This document shows positions 30,001-33,000 of a stretch of DNA of 62,297 nucleotides, piece after piece (the first letter of the stretch is position 1; every line of letters begins with the position of its first letter). The DNA is taken from assembly GCF_024298765.1 (NCBI RefSeq), contig NZ_CP101213.1. One strand, given 5' to 3'. The position numbers are program-made. The stretch comes from Escherichia coli. GTDB taxonomy: Bacteria; Pseudomonadota; Gammaproteobacteria; Enterobacterales; Enterobacteriaceae.

Positions 30001-33000
30001 AGGTAATTACGGGCTTTCCTGGATAGCGGAACATCGCGTGGAGCACCGTTTTTGGTTGTTGGAAGATGAGCTACCCCATGTTGCAGATCGACGTGTTCCC
30101 AACGCAATGACAAGATTTCACCTTGTCGCATTGCTGTTTCCAGCGCCAGATGAAAAATGACGTAAAGAGCCTGATTTTTTTCTTTGAAATACCGCGAAAG
30201 TCGGCGTTCTTCTCCTGAAGTCAGGCGACGATCGCGCCCGCTACTGATTTTGGGTTTTCTGACCAGTTCGACAGGATTCATGCGGCATGTTCCCCATTCC
30301 ACACGGGCGATATTGAATAATGATGACAACAGGGCAAGTTCAAGACGGACGGTGTTTCCGGTTATTTGACGCCCCGTTCGTGGGTTAATTTGCGCCAACC
30401 GTTGATCCCGATAATTGGCAATATCAACAGTGGTAATGTCATCCATATAGCGTTCAGCAATAGGGTGACGTTTAATCACATTTACGCGATAAAACTCCTG
30501 TAGATGGCCTTTTTTGTGGATGGATACTGTCTTCAGGTATTTGTCCAGCGCCCGGCTGATTGTCATTTTGCGAATTTTGATTTTCTGAAACATATCCCCT
30601 CCAGACAAAAAAGGGGGGAAGGTAGAGATTCTTGCTTCGAAATGCAATATCACCGTGCCAATCCGGTGTGTGGAGGGCATTAGGTGGAAAGCTCAAGGTT
30701 ACTCAACTTTCCAGCACTGGTTACTTGGGGCAATTTGACTTTTGTGCCATTGCCAGAATGGGAAATGCTGAGGATTCTCATTACTGCCAGGTAGTCGAGA
30801 GTCCATCTGGTTCACGAAAATGGTACAAATACGAGCACAAGACAGGTTGTATTGCGTCCTGTGTAACTCTCAATTAAGTTTGGTATCCAAATACTGAAAA
30901 TACCCCTGAGCCACAAGAGTAGTTTTGGGCCGGATAAGAGGTGATCTGATAAGTTGCGCCAGCAGGGACAGCAAAAGAGATGAATGCTGTCTTCCCATAA
31001 GATGGGTTGTTGCTCGCATTTGTGCTAATCAATGCCCCTGCAACGTATCCCTGCAATCTGGATGTGTTAGCACAATCTCCCCCGGCGGAACCACCATTCC
31101 CTCCAGAGGCGTAAACAAACAGCGTACCACTTCCCGTATTGCGACCAGTAAATGATCCTCGGTGTGATCCAAGATTACTGTAACTACCGTTAGAGGAACC
31201 GGAAGTTCTCCACACACCGGATTGGCCCCCCTATTTCTATGATTAATCAATACATACTGCATCACAACGATAACTAGCTATTGAAGGTGGGTAAGCTGTT
31301 AGTTGCCAGTTTGATCCGGATTTAGATAACGAGCATTCTGAATAATCGTTTGAATTATGGAAACCCGTTGCTCTTACATGGGATAATGCGCAAAAAGTAT
31401 GCTGCCCCAAGTTTGACTGAGAGTATGGGAAATTAAGCTGATAGGAGGAGACTTTCCCTATGCCTCCTCCTTTTTTCCACACACCGGATTGGCACTGGCC
31501 TCCGTGCCAATCCGGTATCTGGACAACGGCAAAAGTGAACTTCACTACCAGTACGTACAATATCGGGAAAAACACCCGAAATCTGAGCATTGGCGTACAT
31601 GCGTACTGTTCGTGGACATACCTTAATGGTGCGCCTTTTGGTGGGTTTCAGCAGGTATACTCCGACCAAAACAAGGTTTGGTATGTGAATAATTATGCGT
31701 GGGGAAATTATGAGTCCGGCGGCACAATTACTGTTACATGCCTGAATCTTCCTGGTGCTGGGATTTAACCGAAGGGGCAACAATAAGCATCAACGTGTTC
31801 CTCATCAACGCCATCACCAATGCCATACATGCGTGTACCTGTCATGATAAATCCGGTCGGGCATTGAATGGGTTTGTAGTAGATAGATCCTCCACTTTTC
31901 CCGCCAATGAAGTGATTCATTGCTACAGATGATTGATACCACTTACAGGCGGAGTAGTTCACTTTATTGCCACCAGACCACCGACCGGATTGGCACTGGC
32001 CTCCGTGCCAATCCGGTACGTGGAGAAGGGCATCAGGTAGCACTGTTCTGACAGGAAAAATAGCAAATGGACAACAGATCCCATTGCCATCTGGTTTTTC
32101 TGCCAGCCAGTGTACCTGGAGTGTCAGTAATGCAGAAAATCCGCACGGGTGGAAGCCGAATTATTTTGCGGGGTCAGTTGCAACCTATGATGCCAATCGA
32201 ATTGTGAAATGCGGCTTCTATGACGAATACAACTTTTATGGCGGTACTCACCGAACTGACCTGTCGGGGAAATGTAGTTACATCGTGGTTTGCCAGTGAT
32301 AAGTATCGTCACTGGCAAATGGCGTAAACTGTAATTGAACCATTTTGATCTTCGGTCGTGTCGCAACTGGCAGTCCATGCATTGTTGCCTGAAGGCATGG
32401 AACGTGTGAGCCATATAAATCCGGTATTTGATCTGCATTGACCGCCTCCACCAATGACTTTCTTGCCAGATGGACATGTTGCCGTTGCTCCAGGCCAACG
32501 CCACGCAGTAGCTGAAGCGGTAACAATTTGGCTATCACCTGCGCCAATTTTTTTCCACACACCGGATTGGCACGAAAGTATCGCCCCTGTACTGTCGCGG
32601 CCTACAAGCCCGTTAGGGGAGCAGGAAGCGCCAGCCGTTGCTGTTTTTTCAAGCTGTAAATACTCGCCTGTATAGAGGCGTCCATCAGCGCGTACAGTTC
32701 CACCTTTTACCTGGCCGCCAGTATAAATCCCTTTATTATTCACGCTGCGCAACCAGGACGAATCGGACATATACCAGCCGCCACCATAGGTACTGTTCAT
32801 CCAGCCTTTGCTGTTTTTTGTGACCAGCCAGCCATTATTCGAAGTGATATCGCCGTTGGTTGTGGCTGTATTTCCTGAAATTGCGCCAGAGAACGTACCG
32901 TTACGTGCGCTGATATCGCCGGAGAGCGCGGCGGCGTTGCCGTTTAAAGTGCCGACGTTGTTCAGATTGTTGCTGTTCATATCAATCGCCGTATGCATCC

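Follow-up and report, generated by a model that had tools for sequence, protein, structure and literature searches.

The pilV shufflon of an mcr-1 IncI2 plasmid: a published seven-repeat form that includes segment E

At the distal end of the type IVb thin-pilus (pil) operon of a conjugative plasmid lies a set of repeats and alternative reading frames that raises the question of which recipients are recognised by one of the tails encoded there, that of segment E. The window, by which we mean the whole 62,297-bp stretch of DNA that was analysed, belongs to an mcr-1 IncI2 plasmid, as judged from near-identical public plasmids that are typed as IncI2. We conclude, with a probability of about 0.95, that the region is the multiple-inversion switch, or shufflon, of this plasmid and that it has the published form of 1919 bp and seven sfx sites, with segments A, E, C, and BD. 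It is a known system, a DNA-shuffling switch between seven alternative tip adhesins for the conjugation pilus, and the finding is correct but ordinary: the exact form is already published and is common, with over a hundred public plasmids.

Repeats, recombinase, and pilin tails

From its first to its last sfx site the shufflon measures 1919 bp (30655-32573), with rci on one side and the constant part of pilV on the other. A search of the whole 62,297-bp window with the sfx motif GCCAATCCGGTNNNTGG at ≤1 mismatch returned seven sites and none beyond them, against 0.00 expected from 100 shuffles, in agreement with the seven 19-bp repeats next to rci that the initial annotation had recorded. Both the 7-bp core, GTGCCAA, and the 12-bp right arm, TCCGGTNNNTGG, are conserved, the left arm is variable, and inverted pairs are present. 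The orientation series from S1 to S7 is + - - + - + -, with three sites on the plus strand and four on the minus strand. The alternation that had been described is therefore not strict, as S2 and S3, which are offset by 267 bp, point the same way. It is because S2 and S3 are direct repeats that there is a 267-bp segment with only one ORF. The two repeat pairs said to lie 8 bp apart do so, with the same spacer in both gaps (Table 1), and a survey of mcr-1 plasmids of the IncI2 type from 2020 (PMC7076156) describes this spacer as well, as a conserved one. The deviant end assigned to one repeat was found as well: on the plus strand S2 ends in GGCCC instead of GGCAC. Read in the canonical orientation, the second base of the 7-bp core is G rather than T, which makes S2 the sole site of the seven with the core variant GGGCCAA. 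The left arm of S2, ATAGAAATAGGG, forms the sequence 3' of the E tail.

The two genes that flank the repeats identify the system. The rci gene is intact and its translation contains the motifs HDLRH and LKRYTH. The PilV constant region has a prepilin-like N-terminus (MKKTDKG/VSLLE), matches Pfam Shufflon_N (PF04917, E 3.2e-167, residues 33-345), and ends at S7, where the S7-encoded CQSG starts at residue 342. A scan against NCBIfam was uninformative, as PilV had no family match and the matches of Rci were far below the cut-offs. Identical plasmids are typed as conjugative IncI2 and have annotated genes for a lytic transglycosylase, the major pilin, and a PilR-like protein; altogether 803 plasmid records match the locus, and those examined are typed IncI2. 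The earlier reading, a PilV shufflon carried by an IncI2 plasmid, is thus borne out by the Phage_integrase domain of Rci, the Shufflon_N pilV ending at S7, and the typing of near-identical plasmids.

All seven sfx sites open in frame into distinct ORFs, with codon counts (Table 1) that start at the Cys codon inside the repeat. Six of the tails correspond to A, A', C, C', B', and D' of R721/R64 and the seventh is E, of 83 residues. The initial annotation had them begin with CQSG(V/I/T/R)W, and all are indeed in the CQSGxW frame; the resident tail at S2, however, starts with GQSGVW because of the GGGCCAA core. A Gly/Ser/Tyr-rich composition is approximately correct (G+S+Y+T+N make up 36-59% of the residues), but the number of cysteines, two or four per tail, is the more consistent feature. 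Counted by the R64 convention, the locus does have four segments and seven C-termini, as the initial annotation had it.

Table 1. Features of the shufflon and its flanks, with positions in the window
Feature	Position	Strand	Remarks
rci, shufflon-specific tyrosine recombinase	29469-30593	-	374 aa, start MFQKIKIRK; Pfam Phage_integrase PF00589, E 1.8e-24
sfx S1	30655-30673	+	GTGCCAA TCCGGTGTGTGG; shufflon end proximal to rci
73-codon tail, segment A	30656-30877	+	61/67 identical to R64 73-aa tail
117-codon tail, segment A (WRTSGSSNGSY...)	30874-31227	-	92/111 identical to R64 117-aa tail; resident start GQSG
sfx S2	31210-31228	-	core GGGCCAA; common to segments A and E; direct orientation with S3
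83-codon tail E	31243-31494	-	sole ORF of 267-bp segment E
sfx S3	31477-31495	-	5' site of E tail
8-bp spacer TGGCCTCC	31496-31503		separates back-to-back S3 and S4
sfx S4	31504-31522	+	right-arm triplet ATC
87-codon tail C	31505-31768	+	67/81 identical to R64 homologue; shfC in pC6-2
76-codon tail C' (CQSGRWSGGNKV...)	31765-31995	-	65/70 identical to R64; shfC' in pC6-2
sfx S5	31978-31996	-	right-arm triplet CGG
8-bp spacer TGGCCTCC	31997-32004		separates S5 and S6
sfx S6	32005-32023	+	right-arm triplet ACG
97-codon tail D' (CQSGTWRRASGSTVL...)	32006-32299	+	77/93 identical to R64 single-ORF-segment tail; shfD' in pC6-2
87-codon tail B'	32309-32572	-	60/81 identical to R64 homologue; now fused to pilV
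pilV as now assembled	32309-33595	-	428 aa = constant region 32574-33595 + B' tail
sfx S7	32555-32573	-	left arm GGCGATACTTTC; expression-site junction with pilV constant region
pilU-type prepilin peptidase	33608-34243	-	Pfam Peptidase_A24; directly upstream of pilV; annotated so in identical plasmids

Relation to described shufflons

The form found here is already on record in Table S2 of the 2020 survey (PMC7076156), which lists a 1919-bp, seven-sfx form made up of E+AA'+CC'+DB, with 'EAA'->CC'<-DB' as an example arrangement and GKGCCAATCCGGTNBSTGG as the repeat consensus. The window agrees with this form in length, in its 3+4 sfx sites, in the fit of the sites to the consensus, with S2 having G at the K position, and in segment content, which is A, BD, and C together with a short E that is joined to another segment without the 8-bp spacer. 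The same length, seven sfx sites, four segments, and G/T core position are seen in the IncI2 mcr-1 plasmids pJIE3685-1 (KY795978), CP029184, and KY120365, tail-by-tail identity for the same seven tails was found in pHLJ179-141, pHLJ109-92, and other records, and many mcr-1 plasmids of ~60.96 kb are 100% identical to the backbone of the window over 24.7 kb. Compared to the IncI2 mcr-1 shufflons of 1919 bp, the window differs solely in the current order and orientation of its segments; compared to the plasmids that carry them, it has one further IS2-like insertion, outside the shufflon.

Two well-described IncI2 plasmids share the recombinase and the constant pilin of the window but not its set of segments. 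Reference records for the comparisons with described shufflons include NZ_MF521836.2 and NC_005014. In R721, the IncI2 prototype, Rci (374/374 residues, as also in TP114 and pHLJ179-141) and the PilV constant region (341/341, as also in TP114) are identical to those of the window, and the A, BD, and C segments have identical or near-identical tails. R721 has, however, six sfx sites, three segments, and six tails in 1652 bp, which is shorter by exactly 267 bp, the length of segment E, and its B' site has the right-arm triplet ACG where the window has GTG. TP114 (Allard et al., 2022; PMC9045228) has four segments and also has A, BD, and C in common with the window, but the fourth one there is B/D, with two ORFs, so that TP114 has eight sfx sites and eight tails in 2202 bp, whereas the fourth segment of the window is the one-ORF E; the window lacks tails B and D, contains E, and has seven rather than eight sfx sites. 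The view that the region has one more segment than expected for an IncI2 shufflon therefore holds relative to R721 (six sfx sites, three segments) but not as a novelty, given the E+AA'+CC'+DB form tabulated in PMC7076156 and the four segments of TP114 (PMC9045228). As a side observation, several papers still give IncI2 shufflons three segments and six PilV variants, even where E is in their own plasmid record, and the annotation of IncI2 shufflons is thus often incomplete.

A resemblance to R64, the IncI1 prototype, had also been suggested, and this is correct for topology but not for content. Both shufflons have seven sfx sites, four segments, and seven tails, in both one single-ORF segment shares an sfx site, in direct orientation, with a two-ORF segment, and six of the seven tails are homologous, with 74-93% identity. 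The single-ORF segment, however, carries D' in R64 and E in the window, where D' shares a two-ORF segment with B'. The window also lacks the B tail of R64, and with it the two-ORF segment of B and B'. R64 Rci is 74% identical to that of the window (286/385 residues) and the PilV constant region ~51%, and the IncI1 backbone of R64 encodes a transfer system of type MPF_I, whereas the plasmid type of the window is typed as MPF_T. Homology with the R64 arrangement is ruled out, as the single-ORF segments carry unrelated tails and the likeness is topological only.

Proposed operation of the switch and the activity of S2

By analogy with R64 and TP114, we propose that Rci, encoded beside the shufflon, would recombine any two inversely oriented sfx sites, so that a single inversion would flip one segment or a group of segments. 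The tail brought to abut the fixed junction, S7, would be fused in frame to the 341-residue constant part of PilV through the repeat-encoded CQSGxW. PilV itself is, by the same analogy, expected to be both a minor pilin and the tip adhesin of the type IVb thin pilus, with its C-terminal tail setting which recipient surfaces (LPS structures) would be bound in liquid mating. The inversion-only chemistry of Rci is based on secondary descriptions (PMC11852207, PMC4176322, PMC9045228). In TP114, deletion of rci fixes the shufflon, rci in trans restores shuffling, and all eight tails support mating in broth (PMC9045228).

Since the B' tail is currently fused to pilV, PilV-B' would be the variant expressed from the window, in which the order from pilV to rci is B'D', C'C, E, and then the 117-aa and 73-aa tails of segment A. 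Under the inversion model, a single inversion would bring D', C, or the 73-aa A-segment tail to expression, while C', the 117-aa A-segment tail, or E would take two, such that all seven tails can be reached in at most two steps. Because segment E has S2 in common with its neighbour, and S2 is direct to S3, E always travels as a prefix to one of the other six tails, and the number of possible arrangements under this model is therefore 288. The 1919-bp shufflons of the window and seven public records have eight different arrangements in eight sequences, and all eight fall within the set reachable by inversion only. Neither an inactive rci nor a single isoform, the two outcomes held up against the original reading, was encountered, with rci intact and many isomers present across public records. 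Comparison with these other records suggests that inversion probably takes place in the source culture too.

The unusual core of S2 allows a different reading, in which S2 is dead, A and E are one 841-bp segment, only six tails can be expressed, and the 117-aa tail is locked in as a cryptic ORF. Strand exchange by related tyrosine recombinases is usually inhibited where the crossover regions are heterologous, and S2 differs from all other sites at core position 2. However, the GGGCCAA site with the left arm ATAGAAATAGGG leads into the 117-aa tail in the window, the 73-aa tail in pHLJ179-141, pHLJ109-92, and pPSS-15_2, B' in pMCR4D31-3 and pXH987-MCR, and D' in pColR598_2, and a change of neighbour needs a crossover at that site; EAA', EA'A, EDB, DBE, and ECC' are, moreover, all tabulated in PMC7076156. 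With at least four downstream partners among near-identical plasmids, a dead S2 with three functional segments is ruled out, and we give this reading next to no weight. Since the partner of S2 changes across near-identical plasmids, S2 recombines and is active. The core mismatch would nevertheless be expected to lower its recombination with canonical sites, and the G at core position 2, which stays with the left arm through the changes of partner, could help to place the strand-exchange point of Rci.

Variation among records of this kind has also to be weighed against error, as a shufflon is a frequent cause of misassembly. The arrangement in the window might be an assembly mosaic of co-existing isomers that matches no molecule as written: IncI2 shufflons are misassembled when long reads alone are used, and a clonal culture contains many isomers (Sekizuka et al., PMC5430464), such that some of the public "isomers", and possibly the window too, could be mosaics. 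Many records are in addition marked as unannotatable in PMC7076156, but the mosaics in that source, for example KY693674 and CP024148, show what is typical of them, namely segments that are duplicated or lost. The window is exactly 1919 bp, contains each segment once, has a canonical sequence at every junction, and is one of the 288 states that inversions can reach, and we regard a mosaic as highly improbable. Were it one after all, neither the parts list nor the mechanism would change.

Segment E and its tail

In a tail-by-tail comparison the E tail was not found in R64, R721, or TP114, and its best identity to any R64 tail is 22/82. That E is an undescribed segment is ruled out by the appearance of both a "segment E" and the 1919-bp structure in PMC7076156 and of PilV-E in RefSeq (WP_235883108.1). 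The "E" of that paper is the 267-bp segment described here, since 1919 - 1652 = 267 and since KY795978, KY120365, and CP021176, given there as carrying E, were also matched in our searches. PilV-E is the annotated PilV C-terminus, with E at the expression site, in pHLJ109-92, CP144929, and pXH987-MCR.

In pHLJ109-91, an E tail of 94% identity lies in a normal two-ORF segment, its partner being the "D" tail of TP114, and the E stop codon is followed by a degenerate sfx-like sequence at the very point that corresponds to the start of S2 in the window, which suggests that the one-ORF form of E arose by rearrangement. A further tail type, of 91 aa, is also present in pHLJ109-91. The layout around its E tail could be taken to mean that E is a decaying half-cassette of a two-ORF segment, one that Rci would still move but that no longer encodes a working adhesin tail. 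We consider this unlikely, although less so than a dead S2 or a mosaic: by tblastn the tail occurs in 129 public plasmid records, 115 of them at ≥99% identity and most at 100%, with the ORF intact, and it occupies the expression site in several. Its four cysteines are kept and are spaced as in the 73-aa A-segment tail, to which its similarity is weak but significant (BLASTP E 8e-8, due in part to the shared CQSGVW), and a one-ORF segment can encode a usable tail, as segment D of R64 does according to the literature.

The conservation of E and its presence at the expression site point to a putative adhesin function. We propose, tentatively and at slightly under even odds, that the E tail may work as a PilV adhesin and recognise recipients of its own. 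In that case, some 130 public IncI2 plasmids with this tail, most of them carrying mcr-1, would have a liquid-mating host range wider than, or different from, that implied by the usual "three-segment, six-variant" description of IncI2.

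PilV shufflon and its tails

The initial annotation of a PilV shufflon beside rci on an IncI2 plasmid is correct, because the Pfam matches (Table), the plasmid matches and the identities to the IncI2 plasmids R721 and TP114 all point to it. Rci is identical to that of R721 and TP114 over 374/374 residues and the PilV constant region over 341/341, whereas the values against the IncI1 prototype R64 are 286/385 and 182/359. An A24 prepilin peptidase gene (Pfam) lies directly upstream of the pilV ORF. The shufflon locus is matched by 803 public plasmid records, those examined being conjugative IncI2 plasmids of ~60 kb from E. 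coli, Salmonella and Shigella, and over its first 24.7 kb the window matches many public mcr-1.1 IncI2 plasmids of ~60.96 kb at 100% identity, being itself an mcr-1.1 IncI2 plasmid.

Reading of 29000-34400 plus a repeat scan located a set of related 19-bp repeats that lie between two minus-strand genes. With at most one mismatch allowed, GCCAATCCGGTNNNTGG occurs seven times, and no more, in the 62,297-bp window, where 0 are expected from 100 dinucleotide-preserving shuffles, which bears out the seven sfx sites (S1-S7) claimed; their first-to-last span of 1919 bp agrees exactly with the annotated extent. All have the canonical layout of a 7-bp core, TCCGGT, a variable triplet and TGG. The core is GTGCCAA at 6/7 sites and GGGCCAA at S2, the latter being the degenerate 3' end (plus strand) that had been noted at this site. 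S3/S4 and S5/S6 are indeed back-to-back pairs, each parted by the 8-bp spacer TGGCCTCC. Orientation is not strictly alternating as had been stated, since S2 and S3, spaced by 267 bp, point the same way as direct repeats.

Features of the shufflon locus and of the plasmid around it (identities are to R64 tails)
Feature	Position	Strand	Right-arm triplet	Tail or product	Codons	Identity or domain
mcr-1	within 18730-21200			MCR-1	541 aa	Pfam EptA_B_N, Sulfatase; PAP2-family gene next
IS3-family element	24754-26084
its transposase ORF	24765-25670	-				Pfam rve, HTH_21
rci	29469-30593	-		tyrosine recombinase		Pfam Phage_integrase
S1	30655-30673	+	GTG	segment A	73	73-aa tail, 61/67
S2	31210-31228	-	GTG	segment A	117	117-aa tail, 92/111
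S3	31477-31495	-	GTG	E	83	no homologue, best 22/82
S4	31504-31522	+	ATC	C	87	87-aa tail, 67/81
S5	31978-31996	-	CGG	C'	76	76-aa tail, 65/70
S6	32005-32023	+	ACG	D'	97	tail of single-ORF segment, 77/93
S7	32555-32573	-	GTG	B', presently fused to pilV	87	87-aa tail, 60/81
pilV	32309-33595	-		PilV		Pfam 'Bacterial shufflon protein, N-terminal constant region', residues 33-345, E 3e-167

The reading frame at each sfx, x-TGC-CAA-TCC-GGT-NNN-TGG, encodes CQSGxW and leads into a separate ORF. The seven distinct in-frame ORFs stand as described, except that the resident S2 copy reads GQSGVW; with this and the orientation of S2/S3 as two small corrections, the initial observation is confirmed. Tails were named by comparison with the sfx and tails in the public records of R721, TP114 and R64, among which the E tail has no counterpart. 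It is weakly similar to the 73-aa A-segment tail (BLASTP E 8e-8, partly via the shared CQSGVW), and the spacing of four cysteines is alike in the two. The right-arm triplet of B' is GTG (CQSGVWKK) in the window and in other plasmids of the same lineage, and ACG (CQSGTWKK) in R721, TP114, pC6-2, CP144929, pMRSN346595 and pPSS-04_2. An ordinary core crossover would be expected to leave each right arm with its tail, so the two-base difference resembles the outcome of conversion from a GTG-type site instead.

Segment E in published IncI2 shufflons

The annotation had counted one segment more than expected for IncI2 and likened the arrangement to R64. The excess holds against R721 (six sfx, 1652 bp), but the form is not new: TP114 has eight sfx and eight tails in four two-ORF segments (PMC9045228 and its record) against seven and seven here, and a 2020 survey of 92 mcr-1 IncI2 plasmids (PMC7076156) names a 'segment E' and, in Table S2, gives 1919-bp, seven-sfx shufflons such as EAA'->CC'<-DB, EA'A<-C'C<-DB and CC'->DB->AA'E. 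The survey's repeat consensus, GKGCCAATCCGGTNBSTGG, accommodates the G of S2 through its K. By length, the survey's E corresponds to 31229-31495, the segment with a single ORF, since 1919 - 1652 = 267 bp, the spacing of S2 and S3. By tblastn, 129 plasmid records carry the E tail, with >=99% identity in 115, and in some the annotated PilV ends in E (RefSeq WP_235883108.1). The structure is thus already known and common, and the finding is of minor interest. Several papers still describe three segments and six PilV variants for IncI2 shufflons, and the surprise at a further segment stems from this description and not from missing knowledge. One of them, PMC8025056, states it for pLWY24J-mcr-1 (NZ_MN689940.1), a record that nonetheless holds the E tail at 100% identity (tblastn); annotation seems routinely to overlook segment E. 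The likeness to R64 is one of topology and not of homology.

The Serratia sp. plasmid pKM0260a (NZ_CP142093.1, 3985-4962), which is not IncI2, encodes a PilV tail with 44% identity to E. Its repeat is another one, CTGTCAATCCGGTGTGTGG, present three times (+ - -); since a two-ORF and a one-ORF segment with a common site again result, this topology recurs beyond IncI1 and IncI2.

Inversion and the variant core of S2

What is directly established is the anatomy, the in-frame design and that the genes are intact and do not differ from their counterparts in plasmids studied by experiment. In PMC11852207 and PMC4176322, the conserved right arm is the specific binding target of Rci, strand exchange takes place in the core, and the asymmetric sfx of R64 limits the enzyme to inversions. 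PilV tails are described as tip adhesins for LPS structures that fix recipient specificity in liquid mating, and in TP114, with the same Rci, reshuffling is quick and 8/8 tails work (PMC9045228). By analogy, Rci would exchange strands between sfx cores and invert segments, and the tail brought to the expression site would be predicted to set the specificity of the PilV tip adhesin in liquid mating. The interpretation in the initial annotation is supported.

Eleven E-bearing public records were fetched and each shufflon was written from pilV to rci. Eight sequences, including the window, share the seven-sfx 1919-bp shufflon (1914 bp in one) and show eight arrangements. If any two oppositely oriented sfx more than 60 bp apart may invert, 288 arrangements result (48 x 6, as E may stand before any of the remaining six tails). 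Starting from the window state, none of the seven tails needs more than two inversions to arrive at the expression site, and every observed arrangement falls inside the set of 288. The isomers are therefore consistent, at population level, with inversion only. Since S2 and S3 are direct repeats and Rci is limited to inversions, E would be stably kept; even so, the 1652-bp type looks like an exact deletion or insertion of E.

The site with the 3' flank of E, ATAGAAATAGGG, as left arm is followed, by record, by the 117-aa, 73-aa, B', D', C' or B tail, and its GGGCCAA form by four different tails. Because a new neighbour for E requires a crossover at this site, these arrangements indicate that the GGGCCAA core is recombination-competent. 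Across S2 of the window and loci L001, L006 and L009-L016, core position 2 is polymorphic at the E-flank site, GGGCCAA in eight E-bearing sequences and GTGCCAA in four. The G is never on other left arms in the seven G-bearing 1919-bp sequences, despite repeated partner changes, and its confinement to the 3' flank of E bears on the point of strand exchange by Rci within the 7-bp core.

Origin of segment E and the plasmid's extra length

In the plasmid pHLJ109-91 (NZ_MN232202.1, 2296-4092), an ordinary segment of 608 bp has two opposed ORFs, one encoding the TP114 'D' tail and the other an 84-aa E tail at 94% identity. Homology to the window stops at ...ATAGAAATAGGG, just past the stop codon of E, and a degenerate sfx-like sequence, GTGCGTATAACGGTACGT, takes the place of S2. 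This break in homology points to a rearrangement, in either direction, at a secondary site or close to it as the probable origin of both the one-ORF form and the unusual core. The same plasmid pairs the 117-aa tail with a 91-aa tail (CQSGVWKGNKEKEHFTVYGTSGCGH...), which has no match among the R64, R721, TP114 and window tails and may be the 'segment S' named in PMC7076156.

Between the topoisomerase and PcfJ genes lies an IS3-family element of 1331 bp, with terminal inverted repeats that look IS2-like. In PLSDB this stretch had no near-100% full-length match, the lone full-coverage match being 91.4% identical. A 5-bp direct duplication, AGAAT, borders the element at 24749-24753 and 26085-26089, and the insertion explains why the window is longer than the 60,960-bp plasmids.
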